From: Candidatus Eiseniibacteriota bacterium
GTDB lineage: Bacteria; Eisenbacteria; RBG-16-71-46
DNA length: 64,000 nucleotides
NCBI GenBank assembly: GCA_016223045.1
Contig: JACRPT010000004.1
Location: 2,899-66,898 of the forward strand
Direction of reading: 5' to 3'
In this document: piece by piece, positions 2,772 to 55,636 of the stretch
Layout: each line of letters opens with the position of its first letter
Numbering within the stretch: position 1 is the stretch's first letter
Made by a program: the position numbers and the translations under genes
The notes under the pieces: model-generated
What the model saw: the letters and a program-made list of their open reading frames with translations, nothing else
What the model was told of the DNA's origin: nothing
Databases searched by the model: none

Positions 2772-5700
2772 TCAATGGAGCACGGTCACGCGCTTCGTGA
2801 ACACCCTCCCCGCGGCTTCGAGCCGCGCCCAGTAGAGGCCGGCGCCGAGCCGCGCGCCGTCCTCGCCCGTGCCGTCCCACGTCACCTCGTGACGTCCGGC
2901 GCCGTGGACGCCCTGCGCCAGCACGCGCACCCGCCGCCCGACCAGGTCGTAGAGCGCGAGCCGCGCCGCGCCGGCCTCAGCCAGCGTGAACGCGAGACGC
3001 GTGCGGTCCACCATCGGGTTGGGGGATGCGCCGGCGAAGTCGAGCGTGAAGCGCGTGTCACCGGCCGGGACGTCCACCGTGGAGACCGTGTTCCAGGCCA
3101 GGCTGTAGGTCAGCGCCAGCAGGTCGCTGCCCGAGTACCGGTAGACGACGATCGGGTGCCAGCCGGTCACGCTGGCCGCGAAGGCCAGCGTGTCGCGGGT
3201 GGACGAGATGGCGATCGAGCCCCCCGCGTACTCGCCGCGGTTGTAGATCCCGCCCCAGGCCCCGGAGAAGACCGCGAACGCCAGGTCGGCGCTCCCCGAG
3301 TTCCGCGTGAGCACGATGTGGTAGGTCGTGCCCGCGACGAAGTACCCCTCGTAGACATCGGTGATGCGGTTCACGCCGAGCGACTGGTTCGCGTAGACCA
3401 CCTCGCTCCCGGCTCCCGCGCGGCCGTAGGAGTCGCTCTGATCGGCGACCAGAGGCTGGCCGCCGCCGCCCGCCGAGTAGAGCACGGCCGCCGGGTACAC
3501 CGTGGTGGGTGTGCCCGAGTAGTGCCCGACCACGAAGTCCGTGAGGTTGCTGCCGTAGGCCGACGACTTGCGCAGGTTGCTGAATCCCGTCGTGCTGTTG
3601 GTGTAGTCGTCGTAGCAGTACATGTCGTAGTCGTCGCCCGACACGTTGCCCGCGCATCCCACCACCCAGGCATAGCCGGCGGTGCGGGTGAACTGCATGC
3701 CGTCGGCGTTGGGCTGGGCGTAGGGGCCGCGCGTGGGCGGCGCGCTGCGGATGATCGCGGTGTTCTTCGCGAGCACCAGCGGGCTCCACACCCACTGTCC
3801 GCTCCACAGGTTGTCGCTCTCGTTCGACTCGGCGAGCGCGGCATCGTAGTCGGCGTAGTCGGTGAGCTCGTGGCGCCCGCCGCGGACGGTGACGGGGCCG
3901 ATGTTGACGACCTGGCAGGTCGCCGGCCCGACTGCGCCCCAGACGCCCCAGGCCACGTACTCGTCCACGTCCAGGTAGATGCGGCTGCCGAACCCGGGGA
4001 CGGTGTTGGGCCCTTCCTGCTGGATCGCCCAGTTGAGCCAGGTGGAGTTGCTGTTCCCGTCCAGCGTGGACGTCAGCACCGCGTTCCCCAGCGCGGCGTC
4101 GCTCAGGTTCCGCGGCACCACCGGCGAGCTGAAGCCGCCCGGCGTCACCCCGGCGTTCAGGTTCGAGAGCGCCGGCCCCACGCTGATCGTGTAGTTGTTC
4201 GCCAGCGGCAGGTCGGTGGCGTTCCTCTTCCACACCACCAGCCCGTAGTAGCCGGTCGAGGGCGGCAGGTAATTGAAGCTCTCGTTGGTGCCGGCGCCGA
4301 TCACCTGGGACGTGCCCACATACTCACCCTTCGAGTAGTAGTCGCCGGTGGCGGCGTACAGGCTGATGTTGAGGTCCGCGGTGCCCGAGTCGTTGGTGAG
4401 CTTGAACGTGTACGTGATCGCCGTGCTGCCCAGGTACACCTCGTGCACCTTCACGATCTGGTTGGCGCTCATCGTGGCGCTGGTGGTGACGCTCGAGCCG
4501 TACGTGGTGGAGGGGAGGAGCGCCGAGCCGAGCCGTCCGCTGGCGGAGACGACGACGTTGGCTGCGCTGCCGGCCGAGTAGCGGTCCACGCCGATCCAGC
4601 GCGTGGCACCGTAGCCGACGCTCCCGTTGTTGCCGTTGAACAGCACGAAATCGGAATTCGTACTGCCGTAGGCGGATGTCTTGAGCGCCGTGGAGAAGCC
4701 GGCCGTGCTGCCGGTGTAGTCGTTGAAGAGCTGGACGTCGTAGTCGTCGCCGCTGGTCGTCGGGATGGTGGCGATGCAGCCCCACCAGTTGCCGGTGAAG
4801 GCGAACCCGTCGCAGTTCCTCGCGCCGAACGGACCCAGCACCGGCGGCGCGTTGCGCGTGACCGGCGTCTGGTCGGCGAGCGCGTACGGGCTCCATACGA
4901 ACTGCGTCTGGTAGGTGTTGTCCGACTCGTTGGACTCCACGATGTCGGAGTTGGTGTCCATCATGTTCTTGAGCGTGTGGCGCCCGCCGCGCACGTAGGT
5001 GCCGAGGTTGAGCCACAGCCCGAGCGTCGAGCCGGCGCCCCAGACGCCGCCCCAGTTCGTGTACCAGACCAGGTCGTCGTCCAGGTAGAGGCTGTTGTTG
5101 CCGTAGGGCGCCGCGCAGTCGCCGCCGGTGTTGGCCATCGCCTCGTTCAGGTAGACGGTGGCGTTGCCGTTGAGCGTGGCCGGCAGCGGCGCGTAGGCGC
5201 CGGTGGCGTCGTTGGTGTTGCGCGGCACCAGCGGCCCGTACCAGCCCCCCGGCGTGCCCGAAGTCAGGTTCGCGCGGCCGGTGTGGGAGTACAGGTACTC
5301 CGCGCCCTCGACGTCGTAGGGATCGAGCGTGCGCTTGGTGACGTCGCCGTTGGACGACCAGCCGTACATGGTCTTGTTCTGGTCGAACGTGCCGTAGAGG
5401 TCGAGGAACCCGATCGAGTGTCCCTCCTCGTGCGTCCCGATGTTCTGGACGTCCATCGAGCCGCCGGCGCCGGCGCAGCTCCAGGTGTAGTTCTGGGAGT
5501 TGAAGCTGATGTCGAACTCGATGTAGTCGCCCGAGACGATGTAGTAGCGCCAGTTGCACACGGCGATGGTGCCGGGGTCGCCCCACCCCGAGCTGACCCA
5601 GCCCAGCACGTTGATGCCGTCGGTGTGGTTCGAGGTGCCGGTCGCGGTGGTGCCCTGGTAGCTCGGGGCGATGCCCGAGGCGCAGGCCCACGTGTCGTAC

Positions 5701-38783: not shown

Positions 38784-40076
38784 CTACCAGCGGTAGGCCA
38801 CGCTGAAGCCGGCGATGTTGACGAAGGACTTGTAGGTGCCGTTGTAGTTGTCGCGCTCCACGCCGTCGGTGCTGCGGTCCTGGACGAACAGCCCGAGCTC
38901 GTAGGCGTCCACGGTCCAGCGGTTGTCCGTGCCGAAGCTCCTGCCGAAGCCGAGCGAGACGCCGTGGCGGCCGGCATCCGGCAGCAGCGGCGTCACCGAC
39001 TCGGTCGGCGCCGCGGCCTTGTCGTAGTAGTAGCCGAACCGGTAGGTGAAGTTCGGCAGCCGGTGCTCGGCGCCGAAGCGCGCCTGCCAGCTGTCGTCGT
39101 AGTCCTCGAGCACGGTCGTGCTCTGGCTGGTGGTGGTGTGGAAGCGGATGGGGAGGTCCCTGAACAGCGACCACTCGAAGAAGTTGAAGTCGCCCTCGAG
39201 CGTCCACGCCGGGGTGGGGTGATAGGCGATGCCGGCCGACCAGATGGCCGGGAAGCGCAGCACCGTGCTCACACCCTGGTTGGGCGGCAGGTTCGCGGTC
39301 ACGACCGAATCGATGATGGTGTCGCCGGTGAAGCGCTGCGTGAAGGTCGCGGTACCGTCGTCCACCTTCACCACCACCTTGCTGCGGTAGAAGGCGCCGA
39401 GCTTCCACTTCTCGTTCGGCGCGAACGACACTGCCGCGTTCCAGCCGGCGCCGGGCGTGAAGCCCGACTTGAGATCGGTCTCGGCGACGTCCCGCGGATC
39501 GCCGCCGCCCCAGGGGAACGGGTTGTGCTTGTGGAGCTTCACCTTCGCCATCATCAGGTCGGCGCCCGCGGCCACGCTCCACCGCGGGTTGACCGCGTAC
39601 GCGGCGGACAGGTTGCCGTTCAGCGCCTGCAGCTCGCCCTTGGTGACGATGTAGCGGCCGCTGAAGGCGTCCGGGTCCTTCCACTCGATGCCGAGCCCGT
39701 AGGGCGAGTTGATGCCGGCCCCCACCGCCCACCGCTCCTTGCAGCGATGGGTCAGGTAGAGCGTGGGCGGGAAGAAGTACTGGCGCTTCATCTCCTCGGT
39801 GGTGCCGTAGCCCGAATAGGGCGACACGCCCGCGAAGCTCGTGGAGGGCGCCAGCAGGCTGCCGCCGACGTAGAGCCGGGTGCCCTCGAGGCGGGTCATC
39901 GCCGCGGGGTTGAAGAACAGGGCCGACGCGTCGTGGACCGCGGCGGTCCCGGTCCCGCCCATGCCGAGGGCGGCGGCGCCCTGCTCGTAGATGCTGTAGC
40001 CGGCCGGGTGGGCGGGAGTGGGGGAAAGCGCCGCGCAAACCACGGCGGCGGTCAGCAGGGTGCGGAATCGTCTCAT
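38784..40076 (-). CDS. fadL: Outer-membrane long-chain fatty-acid / hydrophobic-compound transporter (FadL/OmpP1/TodX family)
   Basis: Signal peptide, a FadL-like N-terminal hatch region, beta-barrel composition, and a C-terminal aromatic residue (..AYRW). Confidence 0.7.
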   Translation of the reverse strand: MRRFRTLLTAAVVCAALSPTPAHPAGYSIYEQGAAALGMGGTGTAAVHDASALFFNPAAMTRLEGTRLYVGGSLLAPSTSFAGVSPYSGYGTTEEMKRQYFFPPTLYLTHRCKERWAVGAGINSPYGLGIEWKDPDAFSGRYIVTKGELQALNGNLSAAYAVNPRWSVAAGADLMMAKVKLHKHNPFPWGGGDPRDVAETDLKSGFTPGAGWNAAVSFAPNEKWKLGAFYRSKVVVKVDDGTATFTQRFTGDTIIDSVVTANLPPNQGVSTVLRFPAIWSAGIAYHPTPAWTLEGDFNFFEWSLFRDLPIRFHTTTSQSTTVLEDYDDSWQARFGAEHRLPNFTYRFGYYYDKAAAPTESVTPLLPDAGRHGVSLGFGRSFGTDNRWTVDAYELGLFVQDRSTDGVERDNYNGTYKSFVNIAGFSVAYRW

Positions 40077-40116
40077 CGCGTGCGGACTCCTGGGGCTGCG
40101 GTGGGAGTGAAGCCCC

Positions 40117-41912
<1,796 letters not shown>

Positions 41913-42155
41913 CTCCGTCGTCCTCCCGTGCGCGGGTCTCCGCCCGGTGGGGGTCCACAGACTGGCCGCAATGCTTAGCACCCGGTCCCTTCCCCCTCAA
42001 GCGAAAACGCCCGGGCCCCGGCCGGGGCGAGCGGGCCGGTGGCCCGGACCCAGTGGCCCGTTGACAGGTGCGGGGTTGCGGGGGGAGAGTGCCGCGCGAG
42101 CCCGGCGATCGTGCCGGCTCGCGCGGCGCTCTCCGCCGCCGAGGAGGTCTCGAGC

Positions 42156-42954
42156 CATGACCATCCGACGTTTCCTGACCGCGGCCGGAGCCGCCGCGCT
42201 GGCCGCCGCCCTGCTGAGCTTCGCGACGCCGATCCCGGCGGTCGCCGCGAACGGCGCGGCCGAGCACCTCGCGGCCGGAGCGGAGAAGTACGCGCATGGC
42301 GACCTGAAGGGCGCCTACGAGGAATACTTCGAGGCCCTGAAGGCCGAGCCCGGCGACTTCACCGTGCTCCACCGGCTCTCGCGGGCCGAGTCGGAGCTGG
42401 GAGAGGATGCGAAGGGTGAGGAGCAGCGCCGGCTGGTGGGCGCCGCGGTGCAGCACGCGCGCGACGCGGTGAAGGCGGCGCCCGACAGCGCGCAGGGACA
42501 CCTGGCGCTGGCGGTGGCGCTCGGCAGGCAGGCGCTCAAGGAGGGCCCGAAGACCCGACTCTCGCTCTCGCGCGAGATCAAGTCCGAGGTGGACCGCGCG
42601 CTCGCCATCGACCCGTCGCTCGGCCGGGCCTGGCACGTGCGGGCGATCTGGAACCGCAAGCTGGCGAGCCTCAACTTCATCGAGCGTGCGGCCGCGAACA
42701 CGGTGCTGGGGGGCGTGCCGAAGGGCGCCTCGATGGACAACGCGGTGGCCGATCTCAAGAAGGCGATCGCCCTCGAGCCCGACTACGTGAACCACCACCT
42801 CGAGCTGGGCCGCACGCTCCAGATGCTCAAGCGCAAGGCCGAGGCGCGCCGCGAGCTGGAGCACGCGGTCGCGCTGCCGCCCACCAGCAGCCCGCGTGAC
42901 CCGCGCTACCAGGCCGAGGCCCGCGAGCTGCTGGCGAAGCTCGGCAAGGACTGA
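42156..42954 (+). CDS. Exported TPR-like repeat protein
   Basis: ATG followed by MTIRRFLTAAGAAALAAALLSF. Helical repeats of TPR type. Confidence 0.5.
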
Positions 42955-42964
42955 TCCGGTCGCG

Positions 42965-44248
42965 ATGGCTGCTCCGGCGGTGTGGCTGGTGGGCGGCGTG
43001 CGCACCCCGTTCGCGAAGTCGGGGACGGTGTTCCGCCGCACCCCGGTCTACGAGTTGGGGCGCGTCGCGATCGGCGAGCTGCTGGCCCGGCACGAGCTGG
43101 ACCCGGGGCGCGTGGACGAGGTCATCCTCGGCAACTGCGCGCAGCCCGCCGAAGCCGCGAACGTGGCGCGCGTCACCGCGCTGCGCGCCGGCATCCCCGA
43201 GCGCGTGCCCGGCTTCACCGTGCACCGCAACTGCGCCTCGGGGATGGAGTCGGTGGCCGATGCCGCGGACCGCGTCCAGCTCGGGCGCGCGAAGCTGGTG
43301 CTGGCGGGCGGCATGGAATCCATGAGCCAGATCCCGCTCATGTACACCTTCGAGTACGGCGAGTGGCTCGAGGGCCTGATGCGCGCGAAGACGCCGCTCG
43401 CCCGGCTCGGCGCGTTCGGGCGCTTCCGCCCGAAGCTGCTGGTGCCGCGCATCTCGCTCATGGAGGGGCTCACCGACCCGGTGGGCGGGCTCAACATGGG
43501 CGAGACCGCCGAGGTGCTGGCGCGCGAGTTCCGCATCACGCGCGAGCAGCAGGACCGGTTCGCGCTGGCGAGCCACCAGCGCACCGTCGCGGCGCGCGAG
43601 CGGCTGCGCGAGGAGATCGTGCCGCTGTTCCCGGCCCCCGGCTTCGAGATGGTGCGCGACGACGTGGGTCCGCGCGACGGGCAGACGCTGGAGGCGCTGG
43701 CCAGGCTCCGGCCCTTCTTCGACCGCCGCAACGGCACGGTCACGGTGGGCAACGCCTGCCCGGTCACGGACGGCGCGGTGGCCCTGCTGGTGGCCGACGA
43801 GGAGACCGCGCAGAGCTGGCCGGCGCCGCCGCTCGCCCGCATCCGCGCGTTCGCGTTCGCCGGACTCTCGCCGCGCCGCATGGGGCTGGGGCCGGTGTTC
43901 GGCATGGCGAAGGTGCTGGCGGGCGCAGGGCTGGCGCTCGAGGACATCGAGCTGTTCGAGATCAACGAGGCGTTCGCGGCCCAGGTGCTGGGCTGCCTGG
44001 AGGCCGCGAAGTCGGAGCCCTTCGCGCGCGCCGAGCTGGGGCGCGACCGGGCGCTCGGCGAGATCCCGCTCGAGCGGCTCAACGTGAACGGCGGTGCCAT
44101 CGCGCTCGGGCATCCGGTGGGCGCGAGCGGCGCGCGACTGCTGCTCACGCTGTCACTCGAGATGCGGCGCCGCAACGCGAAGCTCGGGCTCGCCTCGCTG
44201 TGCGTGGGCGGCGGGCAGGGCGCGGCGTTCGTGCTGGAGCGTGACTGA
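42965..44248 (+). CDS. fadA: Acetyl-CoA C-acyltransferase (thiolase)
   Basis: Active-site Cys region (VHRNCASGME) and the C-terminal NVNGGAIALGHPVGASGARL thiolase signature. Confidence 0.85.
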   Translation: MAAPAVWLVGGVRTPFAKSGTVFRRTPVYELGRVAIGELLARHELDPGRVDEVILGNCAQPAEAANVARVTALRAGIPERVPGFTVHRNCASGMESVADAADRVQLGRAKLVLAGGMESMSQIPLMYTFEYGEWLEGLMRAKTPLARLGAFGRFRPKLLVPRISLMEGLTDPVGGLNMGETAEVLAREFRITREQQDRFALASHQRTVAARERLREEIVPLFPAPGFEMVRDDVGPRDGQTLEALARLRPFFDRRNGTVTVGNACPVTDGAVALLVADEETAQSWPAPPLARIRAFAFAGLSPRRMGLGPVFGMAKVLAGAGLALEDIELFEINEAFAAQVLGCLEAAKSEPFARAELGRDRALGEIPLERLNVNGGAIALGHPVGASGARLLLTLSLEMRRRNAKLGLASLCVGGGQGAAFVLERD

Positions 44249-46443
44249 TGTCGGCGTTCTTCGTGGACGTGAAGCCGGCGGTGGACCTGGGCGCGGGCGC
44301 CCCGGTCCCGGTCGCGCACCTGGTGTTCGACGACCCCGGGCGCAAGGTCAACGTGCTGGACGAGGGCGCCATCGGCGACCTGGAGAACGCGCTCTCCGAG
44401 ATCGAGCGGCGCACCGACCTGGGCGGCGTGGTGCTGCGCAGCGGCAAGAGCGGCTCGTTCATCGCCGGCGCCGACGTCGAGGCGATCGGCGCGCTCACCG
44501 ACCGCGCCGCGGTGCATGCGCTGGTGAAGCGCGCGCACGCCGCGTTCGGCCGGCTGGCGGCGCTCCCCTGCCCGACGGTGGCCGCGATCGACGGAGTGTG
44601 CCTGGGCGGCGGCACCGAGCTGGCGCTGGCGTGCGACTCGCGCGTCGCCGCCGACGAGCCGCGCACCCAGATCGGGCTGCCCGAGGTGCTGCTGGGCATC
44701 CTCCCCGGCTTCGGCGGCACCACGCGGCTGCCGCGCCTGCTCGGCGTCTCGACCGCGCTCGACCTGGTGCTCACCGGGCGCACGCTCGACGCGCGCCGCG
44801 CCGAGAAGGCCGGCCTGGTGGCGCGCGCGGTGCCCGCCGTGTGGCTGCTGGAGCACGCCCACCGCCGGCTCGGCGAGCTGGCGCAGCGCGCAGCGGACCC
44901 GCGCGCCGCGCGGGCGCCCCGCCGGCGCGACGTGTGGCGGCCGAAGGCGCTCGCGGGCCGCGTCCTGGACGGCACGCCGTTCGGCCGCGCGCTGGTCTTC
45001 TCGCGCGCGCGCGCCATGACCAGGGCGCGCACCGGCGGCCACTACCCGGCGCCGCTCGCCGCCATCAGCGTGATGGAGCACGGCTTCGGCCAGCCGGTCG
45101 AGGCCGGGCTCAGGATGGAAGCCGAGTGGGTGAGCGATCTGGTGGTGGGCCCGGTGTGCAAGAACCTGGTGCGCATCTTCCTTCTCTCCGAGCGCGCCAA
45201 GAAGGAGCCGGTCGCCGACGCCGCGATCAAGCCGCAGCCGGTCGAGCGGCTGGCGCTGGCGGGCGCGGGCGTGATGGGCGGCGGTATCGCCGAGCTGGCG
45301 AGCCGCAGCGGCATCGAAGTGCGCATGCGGGACATCAGCGCCGAGTCGCTGTCGCGCGCGCTCCAGACCGTGCGCTCGCTGGTGGCGGAGCGCGGGAAGA
45401 AGCGCCGCGCGAAGAAGAGCGAGGCCGACAACCAGCTCGCGCGCGTCTACCCCACGCTCGACCTCGCCGGGCTCAAGCGCGCCGACTTCGCCATGGAGGC
45501 GGTGGTCGAGGACCTCGACGTGAAGCGCAAGGTGTTCGCCGAGCTCGAAGTGAGGATGCGGCCCGGCGCCGTGCTCGCCACCAACACCTCGTCGCTCTCG
45601 GTGGACACGCTGGCCGACGGGCTCGAGCGGCCCGACCGTTTCTGCGGCTTCCACTTCTTCAACCCGGTCCACCGCATGCCGCTGGTCGAGGTGGTGCGCG
45701 GCGCCAGGACCTCGGACCAGACGCTGGTGACGGCGGTCGCGCTGGCGCGGCGGCTCGGGAAGACCCCGGTGGTGGTGAAGGACGCTCCCGGGTTCGTGGT
45801 GAACCGCATCCTGATGCCCTACCTGCGGGAGGCCATGCACCTGCTCGAGGAGGGCTACCCGGTCGCCGGGGTGGACGCCTCGATGCGGCGCTTCGGCATG
45901 CCGATGGGCCCGTTCGAGGTGGTGGACGAGGTGGGGATCGACGTGGCCCACAAGGTCGCCGGGATCCTGAGCCGGGCATTCCCCGAGCGCATGAGCGAGG
46001 CGCCCGCGCTCGAGAAGCTGCTCGCCGCGGGCAGGATGGGGAAGAAGAGCGGACTCGGGTTCTACCGCCACCGCGGCGGCAAGCGCACGCCAGACCCGGC
46101 GGTCGCGGGACTGCTCGGCCAGGCGCGCTCGCGCAAGGCGCAGAGCCTCGAGGTCCTCTCCGAGCGCATGGTGCTCGCGATGATCAACGAGGCCGCGCAC
46201 TGCCTGGCCGACGGCATCGTCGCCGACGCCGGGATGCTCGATGTGGCGATGATCTTCGGCACCGGCTTCCCGCCCTTCCGCGGCGGGCTGCTGCGCTACG
46301 CCGACACGCTCGGCCTGGCGAAGGTCGAGGGCCGCCTCGCCGCGCTGCGCGCCGAGAAGGGCGAGCGCTTCAGGCCCGCCCCGCTCATCGCGAAGCTCGC
46401 CGCCGAGGGCGGCACGTTCACGCGGCCGATCGTCGCGGGCTGA
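44248..46443 (+). CDS. fadB: Fatty-acid oxidation complex alpha subunit (enoyl-CoA hydratase / 3-hydroxyacyl-CoA dehydrogenase)
   Basis: 731 aa. The N-terminal part is a crotonase domain. The NAD-binding GAGVMGGGIA motif is present. Its ATG overlaps the thiolase stop (TGATG). Confidence 0.85.
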   Translation: MSAFFVDVKPAVDLGAGAPVPVAHLVFDDPGRKVNVLDEGAIGDLENALSEIERRTDLGGVVLRSGKSGSFIAGADVEAIGALTDRAAVHALVKRAHAAFGRLAALPCPTVAAIDGVCLGGGTELALACDSRVAADEPRTQIGLPEVLLGILPGFGGTTRLPRLLGVSTALDLVLTGRTLDARRAEKAGLVARAVPAVWLLEHAHRRLGELAQRAADPRAARAPRRRDVWRPKALAGRVLDGTPFGRALVFSRARAMTRARTGGHYPAPLAAISVMEHGFGQPVEAGLRMEAEWVSDLVVGPVCKNLVRIFLLSERAKKEPVADAAIKPQPVERLALAGAGVMGGGIAELASRSGIEVRMRDISAESLSRALQTVRSLVAERGKKRRAKKSEADNQLARVYPTLDLAGLKRADFAMEAVVEDLDVKRKVFAELEVRMRPGAVLATNTSSLSVDTLADGLERPDRFCGFHFFNPVHRMPLVEVVRGARTSDQTLVTAVALARRLGKTPVVVKDAPGFVVNRILMPYLREAMHLLEEGYPVAGVDASMRRFGMPMGPFEVVDEVGIDVAHKVAGILSRAFPERMSEAPALEKLLAAGRMGKKSGLGFYRHRGGKRTPDPAVAGLLGQARSRKAQSLEVLSERMVLAMINEAAHCLADGIVADAGMLDVAMIFGTGFPPFRGGLLRYADTLGLAKVEGRLAALRAEKGERFRPAPLIAKLAAEGGTFTRPIVAG

Positions 46444-46832: not shown

Positions 46833-49800
46833 CTACGCCCCCGCGGGCCGCGGCGCGGGCGGGCCGAACGGCTCGATCTGCGGACCGGCGGGCTCCTTCG
46901 CCGCCGGCGCTTCGCCGGACGGCGGCTCGGGCTCGGCCGGCTTCATCGGCTCGAGCTTCTCGCCGCGCAGCACGCGGTTCATCTGGTCCCCGTCCAGCAC
47001 CTCGCGCTCGAGCAGCGTGCCCGCGAGCAGGTGCAGCTTCTCGAGGTTCTCCTTGAGCACCTTGAGCGCGTGGTTGTAGGCGCCCTCGACCAGCGAGCGG
47101 ACCTCGGAGTCGATCTTCTCGGCGGTGAGCTCGGAGTAGTCCTTGTGGGTCGCGATCTCCTTGCCGAGGAAGACCATCTCCTCCTTCTTGCCGAAGGTGA
47201 GCGGGCCGAGGTTCTCGCTCATGCCCAGCTCGCAGACCATCTTGCGCGCCAGCGCTGTGGCGCGCTCGATGTCGTTCGCCGCGCCGGTGGTGAAGTGGTT
47301 GAAGATCAGGAACTCCGCAGCGCGACCGCCCATCATCATCGCCAGCGTGCGCAGCAGGTCCTCGCGCGAGCGCGAGTAGCGCTCTTCCTGCGGCACGTAG
47401 CTGGTGATGCCGAGCGCGCGCCCGCGCGGGATGATGCTGATCTTGTCCACCGGGTCCGCGCCCGGCAGCAGCCAGGCGATGAGCGCGTGCCCCGACTCGT
47501 GGTACGCGGTCGAGCGGCGCTCGTCCTCGGACATCACCAGGCTCTTGCGCTCCATGCCCAGCATCACCTTGTCCTTGGCGTCGGCGAAGTCGACCGCGGT
47601 GACCTTCTTGCGGTTGCGCCGCGCCGCCAGCAGCGCCGCCTCGTTCACCAGGTTCGCGATGTCGGCGCCCGCCAGCCCCGGCGTCGAGCGCGCGATCTGC
47701 TTCAGGTCCACGTCCTCGGCGAGCGGGATCTTGCGGGTGTGCACCTTGAGGATGCCCTCGCGCCCGCGCACGTCGGGCCAGTCCACCACGATCTGCCGGT
47801 CGAACCGCCCGGGCCGGAGCAGCGCGGGGTCGAGCACGTCCGGCCGGTTGGTGGCCGCGATCATGATGACGCCCTCGTTCGAATCGAAGCCGTCCATCTC
47901 GACCAGCAGCTGGTTCAACGTCTGCTCGCGCTCGTCATGCCCGCCCCCGAGCCCCGCGCCGCGGTGCCGGCCGACAGCGTCGATCTCGTCCACAAAAACA
48001 ATGCAATTATGTACGATCAAGTTGTTGGCAATGAAGCAGTTATGTCTATCGAGACACAGATCGTATACGGGCTCAGACGACGGCGTGCGATTGATACTCT
48101 GGATCCTCGACCACAGGATGGCGGAGTCCGCGAGATCTCTGAGTCGCTGGAACTCCGGAGTGACGTCAATCTCCCGACTCTGGCGCCAGGATTCCATCTC
48201 TTCTACGACAGTCTGCAGGCTGCCTCGGGACGGCGAAACGAGACCTCGTTCATATGCACTCACGACGTGGCCGCGGGAGAACGCACGCTGGCCCATGCGC
48301 ATGGACTGCCTCGCGCTCCGGATGAGGCCAGCTGCCGGAACCGAGTCCAATCGCGACGATGATGTCTCGCGCTGCATGAGGAGGCATACGAGGTCATGGA
48401 GCTTCGAGAGCTTCTCGGGATGTTCGCTTCCGACCCGGCTCGAGAACCTCAGGAGCATATCCCGACCGGTTACGACGATGTTCCCCTCGCGTCCTTCGCC
48501 TACGGAGCGGGGCCGGCTGGTGACGATGCCCGCGCGGAGCAGGGCGTCGCGGATCAACTGGTTGGCCTCCTGTTTCCAGGCCGAGATGATTACCTGCGGC
48601 GCTCGCTCGCTGAATCGGACGCATCCGTCACCGTCAAAGACTCCGCGCAGCCAGGAACCGATGATAGGGGCTGGCATCTCGAGTATCCGCGACTGCAGGG
48701 TCCGGAGCGCGTCGCAGAGGAGCCGGTTGTTGATGTAGGTCGTGTAGCAGTCCTGCAGCGTCACCGGATGAGTACCCTGTGGCAGGACGATCTCGTAATG
48801 CTTCTTGTTCAGGTGCCGCTTGGGCTCGTAGTCGAACTCCGCCATGCAGATCTCGCGAACGCGCTCATGCAGGGCGAGCTGGGTATTGACGAACTGGATG
48901 GCGCGCTCTCCCATCTGTCCGAAGTACCCATCGGACGCGATCAGCCCACACAGGTACGCAAGCTCGTCATCGATCTCGAATGGGATATGGTCCAGGTAGG
49001 ACGAACCGAAACCGCCGACTCCGATGGACAGCCGCTCGATGTCACGGTGGTACTGCCCGATGTCCTGCCGGATCTCGAACAGCTTCGGCCGCCGCGTGCC
49101 GGGCCTGTGCCCCCTCAGATGAACGACCACGTCCTCGGCCGGCAACAGGTCGTAGAACAGCGGCAGTGGCGACGGCGTCGTCGGGATCACCCGCGGCACC
49201 GCCACGTATTCGCCTTCCTTCAGCTCGTCCGCCCGCACCCACTCCATGCCGTCGCCGCGCAGCACCGGGAAGAGGTGGTTCCCCGTCGCCTTGATGGCGC
49301 TCGTGGACGTCGTGACCTCGAACAGCTCGGTGGACGGCTTGCACGTGATGCCGATCACGGTCGCGTCGTCGAGACGGTAGTCCTCGGCCATGGCCGGCAC
49401 GCGCACGCCGACCATCTGGTTCTCGAACATGTCGCGGATCGCCACCTGCCGCCCGCCGCTCAGCGTGACCATCGTGTCGCCGGTCAGGCACGGCGCGTTC
49501 CGCTTCGCCTGCTCGAAGAGATCACGGACCCTGCTGTTGTGGAGGAGCACCGGCCTTTCACCGCCGAAGAACGCCTCGTTCTCGCAGCCGCACAGGTCGT
49601 ACACGAAACCGTCGAAACGCCGAACTGTGACGGACTCGATGAGGGGGTTCTCGGGCGCCGCCGACCACCCGAGCCGGACGATCTGCGTGGCATCGGCCCC
49701 GCCCGGCGGCATGCCGACGAGTCTGTCACCCTCCCTGAGCTCACGAGCGGCGACTGCCTGCATCTCGCAACCGCGGGACGTGAAGACACTGTGGTCCGGA

Positions 49801-50939
49801 GTCGTCCGGAGGACGGAACCCGCACAGCGGATCTCCACGATCTCGGTCGCGCGATGGCGGAACACTCCGCGGACAGCGCTCCACTTCCGCACACGCATGC
49901 GCGTGGCGACAGCACCTCCCTCATCAGCAGGCTCCGCCTCCTCGAACCCCAGCGTTTCCACTCCGCGCACCGGGATGACGAACCCCTCCGTATCGCCCTC
50001 GTAGTAGCGGTCCACGAACGCGCCGATCTCCACCAGCTCGGTGCGGCCGTCGTGGCGCACGAGCACGGGCGTGTCACCGGTGACGGACGCCCCCACCCCC
50101 ACGAACATCTCCACGAAGTCCGACCCGCTCATCGAGAAGAAGGGCACGGCGGCCTCGCCGGCGACGGCCTTCGCGAGCAGGGTCTTGCCCGAGCCCGGGG
50201 GCCCGAGCAGCAGCGCGCCCTTCGGGATCCGGCCGCCCAGGCGCTGGAACTTCTGCGGCTCCTTCAGGAACTCGATGATCTCCTGCAGCTCCTGCTTGGC
50301 CTCCTCGCAGCCCGCCACGTCCTTGAACGTGACCTTGGGCTGGCTCTCGAGCAGCACGCGCGCCTTGGTCTTGCCGAACTTGAGCGCCGCGCTCCCGCCC
50401 GACTGCATCTGGCGGATGAGGAACAGCCACGCGCCGAAGATGATCACGAGCGGCAGCCAGGAGAGCAGCACCGAGACCCAGTTGAAGCCCGCCGGGCGGA
50501 CGTCGATCTCGGCGTCCTTGTTCTTCTCCCAGACCTTGTCCGGCAGGTTCGCTCCGTCGCCGACGATGTTCGTCTTGAACGCCTTGAACGACACGTCCTG
50601 CCCGTTGACCCGCAGCGCCGAGGGGCCGTTCAGCTCGCCGGTGACGCCGTTCTCCATGATCTGGAGGCTCTTGATGTTCCCGTCGCGCACCTCCTTCATG
50701 AACCGCGTGTAGGAGATCTCCGCGCGCTGGGGCGCCATGATGTTCCCCTGGTACATGCGGTAGGCCACGAGCGAGAGCAGCACGATGAGCGCCCAGAACG
50801 CCAGCGTGCGGAACGGCCGGCCCGCGGGCATGGGCACCTGCGGGCGGCGCGACGGACCGCCGCGCGGCGCGCCGCGCCGGCTGTCGCGATTGCGGCTGTC
50901 GTCAGAGCCGGGCCGCGGGTCCCGACGGAACGAGCTCAC
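46833..50939 (-). CDS. ftsH: ATP-dependent zinc metalloprotease FtsH interrupted by two in-frame inteins (1,368-aa precursor)
   Basis: The ORF reads through both inteins without a stop. With the two insertions removed, the N-terminal transmembrane region, Walker A GPPGSGKT, pore loop MFVGVGA, Walker B, second region of homology, the HESGH zinc site and the C-terminal helical domain align with canonical FtsH. Confidence 0.85.
48006..49490 (-). mobile_element. Intein 2 in ftsH (495 aa; Cys1...HN, +1 Cys) with a LAGLIDADG homing-endonuclease domain, inserted between ...KRNAP and the Walker B motif (C)IVFVDEID
   Basis: Block [11 protein letters not shown], block B ATGNHLF, LAGLIDADG motif 1 [14 protein letters not shown], motif 2 [14 protein letters not shown], and block G LIVHN|C. 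Its GC content and codon usage are clearly lower than the host's. Confidence 0.75.
49536..50087 (-). other. Mini-intein 1 in ftsH (184 aa; Ser1...HN, +1 Ser), inserted immediately after the pore-1 loop FVGVGA
   Basis: Block [11 protein letters not shown], block B TPDHSVFT, and blocks F/G VYDLCG...VLLHN|S. No endonuclease domain. Its GC content is host-like. Confidence 0.7.
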
Positions 50940-53262: not shown

Positions 53263-54783
53263 TTACGGTCGGGGGCGCGCGGAGTCAAGGCGGGCGGCCG
53301 GCAGCCCGCGTCGCCTCAGGGCGCCGCGCGGCCGTTCTTCGCGAACCACTTCCACACCCGGCGCATCGCCTCGAGGTCGTCCTGGTTGTAGCTCACGATC
53401 TCCGCGATCAACCGCTCGCGCTCGACCCGGTCCTCGCACGCCCGCGCCTTCTGGTACTGGACGATGGACCACGCCGAGCCCGACTCCGGGTTGCGCCAGC
53501 GGAACCCCGTCCAGTGCGCCACCTTCTTGATGGAGTAGGAGTGGAGCGGCAGCCGCACCGCCTTCCTCACCACCCTCTAGTCCCTGAGGCGCGCCGTAGA
53601 GCTCCAGGTACTTCCGCACCCAGACCTTCTCGTAGTTGTGGTAGTGCACCCAGCGCGCCTGCGGGTGCGCGGCGAGGATCTCCTGCGCGCGCTGGACGAA
53701 GCGCTCCCACGCGCGCCGGCCGCCCAGGTCATCGCCGTCGGCCACGATCGCCTCGGGCTTCGGGGCGTGGACGCCGTCGTCCACCGCCAGGCCCCACAGG
53801 TAGATGGCCTTGTCCACCTCCTCGCCCTCGGGGTCGCCTTCGAGATCGAACCACACCAGCGGGAAGCCTGGCAGCTCGGGCGGCGCGAGCCACACCGCGC
53901 GGTCCCCGTGGTGCGCGCGTGCCTCGGCGACGATCGCCTCGGCCATGCCGGCGATGCCCTTCACGCGGATCTCGTGCGGCTCGCGTGCCGCCAGCTCCTC
54001 GATGGTGCGGATGCCGAGGTCGTGGAGCAGCGGCGCCACCTTGGAGGTCACGTCCGCCAGCACCTCGATGCGCCGCTCGGCCACCGCCCGGGGCCAGCAG
54101 TGGTCGTAGAAGGGGCACTCCGCGCAGGTCGAGTGCGACTTGATCAGCGTGGGCTCGGCGCGGCCCGAGATGAGCTCCGCCGCGCGCGCCACCGCGCGCT
54201 CGTAGCCATCGCCGTCGAGCGCGGGGACCGCGACCACCTCGAGCCTGCCGTTCGTGATCTCGAGCCGTGCCGGCGGCGTCCCGAGCGCGTCCTCGACGAG
54301 GTGCGCGTAGTGCGCCATCTGGAGGGCGATCTCCCGGTGCTCGTCCAGATTCACCGCCAGCTTGGCGTCGTGGACCACCAGGCCGTCGCCTTCCCGGTAG
54401 ATGAAGTCCGGCACGCCCACGCGCGCCCCGTCGCGCGCGAGGAAGAGCGGCTGGTAGAGCGTGACCCGCGTCTCACGCAGGAGCCGCGCGGTCTCGGCGG
54501 CCGCCTGCTCCAGGCGCTGGCCGTGGAAGATCGGCCCTGCGGTCTCGCCGAAGCCGTCGCGCACCGCCTGCTCGTGCTGGCGGCCCTTCTCCCAGATCAG
54601 CCTGTCGAAGTCGGAGGGCGGCGCGGCGAGCCCGGGCGCGTGGGTGCGCAGCCAGAGCCTGCGCTCACACCGGTGGAGCAGGTAGAGCGCGTTCGCGGAG
54701 ACGCGCCCGTCGAGCTCCGGCTCGGGCGCGCGGCGGAGCGAGAGGGAGGGCGCGGCGGGCGGGAGGTTCATGTCGGCGGGCAT
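53263..54783 (-). pseudogene. TM0106-family RecB-like nuclease (TIGR03491-like), apparently disrupted by a frameshift near 53575-53600
   Basis: In one frame the N-terminus carries CERRLWL, the Cys cluster STCAECPFYDHC and WVHYHNYEKV. After YGAPQG this frame turns into Gly/Ala/Arg junk. A different frame (track ORF 53316-53573) encodes the expected family C-terminus VRKAVRLPLHSYSIKKVAHW...IVSYNQDDLEAMRRVW. Confidence 0.5.
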
Positions 54784-54814
54784 CGGCGGCTGCTCCCGGC
54801 CCCGCCCCCCCCCG

Positions 54815-55636
54815 CTACCCCGCGGCCTTCTCGCTCGCGGCGCCCGCGGACTCGCTCTCGGTCGGAGCGGGCGGCTCGTCCGCGGGGCGGACGCGGAAGA
54901 TGCGCGAGAGCTCGCTGCGCAGCTCGCCCTCGTCCAGGCGCTGCTTGAGCTGGCCGCGGTAGGCCACCGAGATCCCGCCGGTCTGCTCGCTCACCACGAT
55001 CACCGCGGCGTCCGACTCCTCGGAGAGCCCGAGCGCGGCGCGGTGGCGCGTGCCGATGGCGGTGGCGAAGAGCGGGTTGGAAGACAGCGGCAGGATGCAC
55101 GAGGCCGCCACCGCCTGCTCCTCGCGCAGGATCACCGCGCCGTCGTGGAGCGGCGAGCCGGGACTGAAGAGCGTGACCAGCAGCTCGGCGGAGACCCTGG
55201 CGTCGAGGCGCCGGCCGGTCTCGACGAAGTTCCGCAGGCCCACGTTGCGCTCGAGGACGATGAGCGCGCCGTGCCGGTGCTGGGCCAGCGTCTCCACCGC
55301 GCGCACCACCTCGCCGAGCACGCCGTAGCTGTCGCCGCGCAGGAACGAGCGGAAGTAACGGGTGCGGCCGAACTGGGCGAGGGCGTGGCGCAGCTCGGGC
55401 TGGAACAGGATCACGAACGCGATCAGCCAGACCGTCTTGAGGCTCTCGACGATCCACTTGACCGCGATCAGGTCGAACTCGCGCGCGACCAGGCCGACCA
55501 GCACGATGACCAGCAGCCCGACGTACATCTGCGCCGAGCGCGTGCCCTTCACCAGGATCAAGAGCCGGTAGAAGAGCAGCGCGACCAGGAAGATGTCGAG
55601 GAGGTCGAGGAACCAGATCTGGTGGACTGGGGTCAT
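54815..55636 (-). CDS. cdaA: Diadenylate cyclase (c-di-AMP synthase), membrane-anchored
   Basis: Three N-terminal transmembrane segments. DAC domain with HDGAVIL, GTRHRAALGLSE and TGGISVAY. Confidence 0.8.
   Translation of the reverse strand: MTPVHQIWFLDLLDIFLVALLFYRLLILVKGTRSAQMYVGLLVIVLVGLVAREFDLIAVKWIVESLKTVWLIAFVILFQPELRHALAQFGRTRYFRSFLRGDSYGVLGEVVRAVETLAQHRHGALIVLERNVGLRNFVETGRRLDARVSAELLVTLFSPGSPLHDGAVILREEQAVAASCILPLSSNPLFATAIGTRHRAALGLSEESDAAVIVVSEQTGGISVAYRGQLKQRLDEGELRSELSRIFRVRPADEPPAPTESESAGAASEKAAG

Follow-up and report, generated by a model that had tools for sequence, protein, structure and literature searches.

A housekeeping FtsH precursor with two inteins in its AAA+ module and its relatives in uncultured bacteria

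The stretch analyzed here is a window of 64,000 nucleotides from Candidatus Eiseniibacteriota bacterium (contig JACRPT010000004.1, assembly GCA_016223045.1), in which the gene for FtsH, the universal membrane-anchored AAA+ quality-control protease, lies on the minus strand at 46833..50939 and encodes a precursor of 1368 aa plus stop from a GTG start. Very probably, this housekeeping FtsH has been invaded at two AAA+ sites by two unrelated canonical class-1 inteins, one directly after the pore-1 loop (site b) and the other directly before the Walker B motif (site c). Both inserts are canonical class-1 inteins, having in common a block A nucleophile, the TxxH motif, the block F Asp, a terminal HN followed by a +1 nucleophile, and a match to the HINT profile or fold. 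Their exact boundaries, profile matches, and motif positions are beyond chance. FtsH inteins of this kind are not a one-off; they represent a common selfish-element pattern in many uncultured bacteria.

Architecture of the precursor and its spliced product

The precursor consists of three extein segments separated by the two inteins. The N-extein (50088..50939, minus strand; aa 1-284) comprises two transmembrane (TM) helices, the FtsH_ext domain, the Walker A motif GPPGSGKT (aa 246-253), and the pore-1 loop MFVGVGA (aa 278-284). The inter-intein extein (49491..49535, minus strand; aa 469-483) is a spacer of 15 residues (45 bp), the last of which is the Pro at position -1 of intein 2. The C-extein (46833..48005, minus strand; aa 979-1368) carries the Walker B motif IVFVDEID, the sensor-1 motif AATNRPD, the arginine fingers of the second region of homology (SRH), the AAA lid, and the M41 protease motif HESGH. 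The features on which FtsH membership is judged, i.e., two TM helices, Walker A and Walker B, the SRH, and HEXXH, are all present.

Excision of aa 285-468 and aa 484-978 yields an FtsH of 689 aa, close to the mature length of about 690 aa predicted by the initial annotation, which had described the open reading frame (ORF) as a canonical FtsH once two in-frame inteins are removed. That description holds, as the spliced sequence aligns with E. coli FtsH (PDB 7vhp_A) at E = 3e-208, without gaps from Walker A through the SRH. In the numbering of this chain, junction 1 follows A230 and junction 2 separates P245 from C246; under the classical E. coli FtsH numbering, which we take to be the chain numbering plus three, the pore Phe would be F228 and the Walker B Glu E255.

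Profile comparisons of the whole precursor, suggested at the outset for FtsH, intein, and LAGLIDADG models, gave matches to all of them. Pfam reports Peptidase_M41 (8e-71), AAA (6e-35, in two stretches), AAA_lid_3, and FtsH_ext for the host protein, and Intein_splicing (2e-28, in two stretches) and LAGLIDADG_3 (2e-9) for the intein part. With the inteins still in place, the score for the NCBIfam FtsH equivalog TIGR01241 is 812 bits (cut-off 600), and intein_Nterm matches in two stretches. Insertion domains internal to FtsH were rejected as an identity for the inserts, and bacterial intein-like (BIL) domains were ruled out, given that the inserts sit in invariant motifs of a conserved protein, are followed by Ser or Cys at +1, and restore the host exactly when removed.

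The source is a metagenome-assembled genome (MAG), and the insertions could in principle be chimeric joins made during assembly or binning. However, they are exactly in frame, carry intein residues at both ends, and leave a gapless FtsH on removal; moreover, the same insertions occur at the same codons in dozens of independent assemblies from different studies. The probability of such an artefact is therefore close to nil.

Intein 1 in the pore-1 loop

Intein 1 (49536..50087, minus strand; aa 285-468) is a mini-intein of 184 aa with the junctions MFVGVGA/SVTGDTP...PVLLHN/SRVRD (slashes mark splice junctions), exactly the Ser1...HN/Ser element after the pore-1 loop that the initial annotation had delineated. 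Its conserved blocks are represented by Ser1 (Ser285), TPDH in block B (aa 380-383), block F, and PVLLHN in block G, followed by the +1 Ser, and intein_Nterm (TIGR01445) covers aa 286-387. The residues S1, T96, H99, D164, H183, and N184 are invariant across nine site-b alleles. Intein 1 alone scores 32.1 bits (E 1.2e-7) against Pfam Intein_splicing, just under the cut-off of 35.8. The top 50 PDB fold matches of its AlphaFold2 model are all inteins or HINT domains, the best being the TFIIB mini-inteins 5o9j/5o9i (E ~4e-10) and the Pho RadA intein.

A profile scan of the 184 aa alone gave no endonuclease match. Residues 1-127 and 146-184 align to both ends of site-b alleles of 383-448 aa that bear LAGLIDADG_3, and the endonuclease has therefore been deleted; on these alignments, intein 1 is a secondary mini-intein derived from a LAGLIDADG-bearing ancestor approximately 440 aa long. 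It is the shortest site-b allele, the others measuring 212, 223, 383, 397, 441, 445, and 448 aa. The identity between inteins 1 and 2 is ~30% over ~50 residues.

Intein 2 before Walker B and its endonuclease

Intein 2 (48006..49490, minus strand; aa 484-978) is a full-length intein of 495 aa with the junctions KRNAP/CLTGDTM...NLIVHN/CIVFVDEID, again at the boundaries first proposed for a Cys1...HN/Cys insertion with both LAGLIDADG motifs. Cys1 (Cys484), TGNH in block B, block F, NLIVHN in block G, and the +1 Cys were located in the translation, so that blocks A, B, F, and G, as claimed by the initial annotation, are accounted for in both inteins. Intein 2 alone matches Pfam Intein_splicing at 9.5e-22 (77.9 bits, cut-off 35.8) and LAGLIDADG_3 at 1.6e-10 (41.6 bits, cut-off 22.5). 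Across 21 site-c alleles, C1, T69, H72, D477, H494, and N495 are invariant.

The homing-endonuclease domain extends approximately over 48171..49160 (minus strand; intein residues ~111-440), with LAGLIDADG motif 1 at 48921..48962 and motif 2 at 48618..48656, both on the minus strand. Among 20 full-length site-c alleles, D187 and G188 of motif 1 and G283, D286, and G289 of motif 2 are invariant, along with ~30 further endonuclease residues, while D288 is kept in 19 of the 20, the window included. The endonuclease of intein 2 looks intact, and because the motif residues and the ~30 further residues do not vary, this conservation points to selection for its predicted activity.

The residue at position -1 of intein 2 is Pro (Pro483, 49491..49493). 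Proline occupies this position in every allele seen, including all 27 loci of the contig scan described below (L001-L027), in contexts such as NAP/C, KAP/C, HSP/C, and NQP/C. According to one study, the natural and engineered inteins tested earlier failed with a -1 proline (PMC6486613). The occurrence of Pro in all alleles seen argues that the site-c family may have adapted to it; judged by sequence, the family would be either adapted to -1 Pro or slow in splicing.

Two site-c inteins, those of L004 and L012, end in EN/C and KN/C, i.e., without the penultimate His, and otherwise look intact. A related mini-intein occupies the equivalent position before Walker B in a non-FtsH AAA ATPase of Armatimonadota (P0028, 767 aa), which has no M41 domain; its junctions are GVAP/CLTGDT...HN/CVLWIDELE, with Pro at -1 here too.

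Distribution of inteins among FtsH proteins

Relatives were collected from contigs, with one genome per GTDB species (loci labelled L), and from protein searches (proteins labelled P). The contig scan was queried with an alignment of the N-terminal region of intein 2, and the best 80 of 133 relatives were taken; a scan with the single intein 2 sequence gave nothing, so an alignment of family members was needed. Among the 80 loci, a Walker-B intein is found in the ftsH of at least 27 species-level genomes (L001-L027), all of them MAGs, and the rest are mostly classical DnaB inteins. The 27 loci belong to Eisenbacteria, Acidobacteriota, Methylomirabilota, Planctomycetota, Chloroflexota, and Patescibacteria. 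Their finer labels include many Eisenbacteria, together with Blastocatellia/Pyrinomonadaceae, Gemmataceae/Planctomycetales, Anaerolineae, 'Bacterium HR35', Pacebacteria, and Saccharibacteria. Pore-loop and Walker-B inteins occur together in 7 of the 27 loci.

Word-indexed protein searches extend this picture. With intein 2, ~30 FtsH proteins interrupted at the identical codon were retrieved (E down to 1e-157), in full-length and mini versions and with the labels Limnocylindria, Eisenbacteria, Gemmataceae, Chloroflexota, and Armatimonadota. With intein 1, seven metagenomic FtsH fragments with the MFVGVGA/S junction were found. One of these fragments, P0006, spans the C-terminus of intein 1, the 15-aa spacer, and the N-terminus of intein 2; the same 15-residue spacer is present in other double-intein alleles (P0006, P0015). 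An exhaustive HMMER search with intein 1 against 1.84 billion cluster representatives returned 151 matches at E <= 1e-3, 57 of them at E <= 1e-10. Sorted by their flanks, the matches include 27 at FtsH site b, 23 at site d of FtsH or AAA proteins, 33 in secretion-type ATPases (QAIA/S...HN/TGHGG), and 20 in small subunits of RFC (LNA/S...HN/SDERG).

Overall, FtsH appears from these sequences to have four or five intein sites. Site a lies in Walker A (GPPGTGK/C...HN/TLLA; L001, L003, and L007); site b, in the pore-1 loop, is occupied in the window and in L003, L004, L011, L012, L013, L016, and L025; site c, at Walker B, is filled in all 27 loci by construction of the query; and site d lies at sensor 1 (VMAA/S...HN/TNRPD; L024). 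Further combinations, a with b and b with d, are seen in P0049 and P0044, respectively. The apparent fifth site comes from P0043 (1434 aa), a divergent FtsH-like protein, in which a member of the intein 1 family sits just upstream of the pore loop with the junctions VPFAYA/S...HN/SAPSFQNMFFGV. This position corresponds to the 'LNA/SDERG' site of RFC, and a second intein of P0043 occupies the sensor-1 site.

Two further loci stand out by their intein load. L003, from a Blastocatellia MAG (JAKEHD010000528.1, 1-10333, match at 5001), has three inteins in an ftsH frame of 2023 aa, at Walker A (428 aa), the pore loop (448 aa), and Walker B (493 aa), all full length with LAGLIDADG. L006 and L010 are two ftsH paralogues of one Gemmataceae MAG (SMAG_U11579), each with a Walker-B intein, a mini form of ~160 aa and a full-length form of 492 aa.

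Evidence for mobility

Homing endonuclease genes pass through a cycle of invasion, fixation, endonuclease decay, and loss. Site b is empty in L009, L014, L015, and L017-L019, and likewise in close relatives of the window (P0020, L009, and L020); it holds full-length inteins of 383-448 aa in L003, L004, L012, L013, and L025, and mini-inteins of 184-223 aa in the window, L016, and L011. Read from these alleles, the empty, full, and mini states of site b among Eisenbacteria and their neighbours are those expected from the homing cycle. Mini forms are also known at site c (L014 with 189 aa, L006, P0021, P0022, P0025, P0026, and P0030).

The identity of inteins is decoupled from that of their hosts. 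Most hosts carry site-c inteins with 54-62% identity to intein 2 of the window, while for their C-exteins the values lie anywhere between 53% and 87%. L020, the closest host, shares 87% of its extein but only 54% of its intein, which is thus among the less similar ones, whereas in the Planctomycetota alleles the intein (57-59%) is more similar than the host protein (extein 53%). In the window, the GC content at third codon positions (GC3) is 0.98 in the N-extein and 0.97 in the C-extein, as against 0.83 in intein 1 and 0.82 in intein 2 (Fisher p 1e-10 and 8e-19, respectively). Both the decoupling and the lower GC3 of the inteins fit horizontally spreading selfish elements, as far as sequence comparison can indicate.

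Movement between sites is suggested by L024, an Anaerolineae MAG (DAOUBA010000109.1), the site-d intein of which (ORF residues 816-1260) is 48% identical over its full length to the site-b inteins of L003 and L013, i.e., as close as site-b inteins are among themselves. This likeness implies that an intein family moved between two ftsH positions.

The relatives of intein 1 that occur in RFC small subunits or secretion-type ATPases are inserted at strand ends of similar structure. Within intein 2, GC3 forms a mosaic, with host-like values over the first 110 codons (0.96), 0.80 in the endonuclease region, and 0.67 over the last 55 codons; recombination with a close relative was considered as its source, and per-segment identities gave no signal of it.

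Proposed mechanism of splicing and homing

From the observed anatomy, family membership, conservation of catalytic residues, and distribution among genomes, we infer that both inteins splice and that they have spread by homing. The 1368-aa precursor would be translated and inserted into the membrane, whereupon each HINT domain, following class-1 chemistry, would excise itself through an N-S or N-O acyl shift at Cys1 or Ser1, trans-esterification to the +1 Cys or Ser, and Asn cyclization. Ligation of the exteins would then give the 689-aa FtsH. Both splicing events would be obligatory, since without them the pore loop, the following α-helix, and the Walker B strand stay apart, with 184 and 495 foreign residues in between. 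Mis-pairing of intein halves is unlikely, given the distant relationship of the two inteins.

Intein 2 would spread from one ftsH allele or lineage to another when its endonuclease cleaves an intein-free ftsH at site c and repair of the break copies the intein into it. Intein 1, a member of a separate Ser1-type family, would represent a fixed mini-intein at a late stage of the homing cycle; with its endonuclease lost, it would no longer be mobile. As sites b and c are 45 bp apart, the target of the intein 2 endonuclease probably survives occupation of site b. In haloarchaeal MCM, neighbouring inteins invade one at a time (PMC10643990).

Several points weigh against this interpretation. The splicing of the precursor is argued from sequence. 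An uninterrupted ORF of 4.1 kb is weak evidence by itself in DNA of 70% GC, the opposite strand of which also has ORFs of more than 1000 aa. The AlphaFold2 model of intein 1 is only moderate, with a predicted local distance difference test (pLDDT) score of 68.7 and a predicted TM-score (pTM) of 0.65, the C-terminal 15 residues scoring below 50. The -1 Pro of intein 2 could make its splicing slow or dependent on special conditions. Finally, the window covers only 64 kb of the MAG, and an intein-free paralogue may exist elsewhere in it.

The last point leads to the question of whether this is a decaying copy, the inteins of which no longer splice, making the gene an incipient pseudogene while a paralogue elsewhere supplies FtsH function. 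Several ftsH paralogues are common in bacteria, and the Gemmataceae MAG has two, both of them intein-bearing; ORFs survive by chance in high-GC DNA, and the endonuclease of intein 1 is already gone. Nevertheless, the extein GC3 of 0.97-0.98, the 812-bit equivalog match, the intact catalytic motifs, and the conservation of every splicing residue speak against decay, and the same architecture has been kept in many independent lineages. The gene order tilS-hpt-ftsH is a conserved housekeeping surrounding of ftsH, and the copy in the window is the syntenic housekeeping one, with a ribosome-binding site: a GGAGG lies a few bases 5' of the GTG start, directly after the stop codon of hpt. A search across the 64-kb window found no second ftsH and no further intein. 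Decay is, on this balance, very improbable, and a functional host gene invaded by two splicing inteins is preferred.

A different proposal is that one or both inteins act as post-translational switches, responding to redox through Cys1 and the +1 Cys of intein 2, to temperature, or to stress, and holding FtsH inactive until splicing. Conditional splicing has been proposed for the inteins of mycobacterial DnaB and archaeal RadA. In FtsH, both inteins split motifs indispensable for ATP hydrolysis or substrate translocation, so that FtsH cannot be active before splicing; the first residue of intein 2 and its +1 residue are both Cys, and its unusual, fully conserved -1 Pro could make splicing rate-limiting. 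Stress-responsive inteins in two-intein proteins have precedents (PMC6195587, PMC4513877). However, patchy presence, absence, and degeneration, the signature of horizontal transfer, and a conserved endonuclease are products of selfish elements that need no host benefit, and the close relatives P0020, L009, and L020 manage with site b empty. The -1 Pro would be the sole foothold for the idea of a switch, which we consider unlikely. The evidence as a whole is in keeping with selfish mobile elements, of which one has already degenerated.

A more specific variant has a slim but somewhat better chance, namely that the Walker-B intein lineage has adapted to an obligatory -1 proline, and that slow or condition-dependent splicing in double- or triple-intein precursors gates FtsH activity. 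If true, FtsH would become a new model host for the interplay of co-resident inteins, with its four or five sites, of which as many as three are filled within ~100 residues of one AAA+ module.

Comparison with known inteins

The nearest characterized relatives of intein 2 by sequence are the DnaB inteins (Ssp and Npu; DLRESG/C), for which the mini-intein PDB entries 1mi8, 6frg, and 4o1r match at E ~1e-9. The same likeness is reflected in NCBIfam PRK07773 matches at 1e-30, and DnaB inteins come next after FtsH in both large searches. The two groups have in common class-1 chemistry, Cys1, the block A sequence CLTGDT, LAGLIDADG motifs, and a hexameric P-loop ATPase as host, interrupted within a conserved motif. 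In contrast to the DnaB inteins, the host of intein 2 is an AAA+ protease and not a RecA-type helicase, the site is right before Walker B, and the flanking residues are -1 Pro and +1 Cys; the identity is only ~35-40% over the N-terminal splicing region.

Intein 1 shares with the inteins of archaeal RFC small subunits and of secretion ATPases and with the TFIIB mini-inteins the Ser1-type signatures of blocks A and G, 'SVTGDTP...LLHN', and its best PDB matches are the Mja and Mvu TFIIB mini-inteins and the Pho RadA intein. Unlike these, it resides in a bacterial FtsH, after the pore-1 loop, and is a mini form that arose secondarily by deletion.

FtsH resembles other AAA+ hosts of multiple inteins, among them haloarchaeal MCM (sites a-e) and archaeal LonB, in that several sites are clustered in the ATPase motifs (P-loop, Walker B, sensor) of one ring protein. 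In MCM, neighbouring inteins with their own endonucleases each invade independently (PMC10643990). In FtsH, the sites are Walker A, the pore loop, Walker B, and sensor 1, of which up to three are filled at once. Unlike MCM and LonB, FtsH is a bacterial membrane protease and not a replication protein, the spacing in the window is only 15 residues, and every FtsH intein allele found to date is from an uncultured bacterium. In AAA+ and other P-loop ATPases, inteins usually reside in the P-loop, Walker B, or sensor motifs (PMC4760082), and the placement of the FtsH inteins is expected because ATPase-motif sites are the textbook pattern.

Novelty and implications

The initial annotation regarded FtsH as a host for which inteins were not established, and no description was met with in the portions of the literature covered. 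PubMed Central (PMC) full text and bioRxiv yielded no report of an intein in FtsH/HflB. FtsH is likewise absent from the main text and the top-15 table of the 2016 Novikova survey of bacterial and archaeal inteins. Co-mentions of FtsH and inteins that looked plausible, in a jumbo phage, a prasinovirus, and a chloroplast genome, each concerned an intein in another gene, and the NCBIfam scan of the precursor brought up no 'intein-containing FtsH' model. As far as could be checked, FtsH is thus apparently an undescribed intein host, though many of its intein-bearing sequences are public. The protein of the window is itself public as MBI5708791.1, 'ATP-dependent metallopeptidase FtsH/Yme1/Tma family protein [Candidatus Eisenbacteria bacterium]', on a 74.8-kb MAG contig, and its annotation is silent on inteins. 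Consequently, the proposal of a new pair of host and insertion site stands with respect to the literature, but that of a singular allele does not, given the public record, the at least 27 MAGs, and the 7 of 27 loci with both inteins.

Elements of this type, their chemistry, and the way they favour ATPase motifs of essential ring ATPases are already well known, and the finding leaves the understanding of inteins or of FtsH unchanged. With FtsH joining the intein hosts, the invasion of ATPase motifs by bacterial inteins extends beyond replication and repair proteins. Annotation pipelines label such proteins as plain or partial 'AAA family ATPase/FtsH' with inteins unflagged, inflated lengths, and split gene calls. 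For protein engineers, the family offers natural inteins that, to judge by sequence, apparently work with a -1 proline, as well as orthogonal intein pairs 15 residues apart and a Ser1 mini-intein that is cysteine-independent at its N-terminal junction.

Genomic neighbourhood

Along the minus strand, folP and cdaA are followed by an unassigned ORF, tilS, hpt, and ftsH. The unassigned ORF (53266..54990, minus strand; ~575 aa), located between cdaA and tilS, has no Pfam match at E <= 1e-5; judged from its position, it may encode a CdaR/YbbR-like regulator. Downstream of ftsH, a fatty-acid degradation cluster occupies 38787..46443 and comprises genes for a FadL/TodX-type outer-membrane transporter, a long AMP-binding acyl-CoA synthetase (in a 976-aa frame), a thiolase, and a FadB-type multifunctional enzyme.

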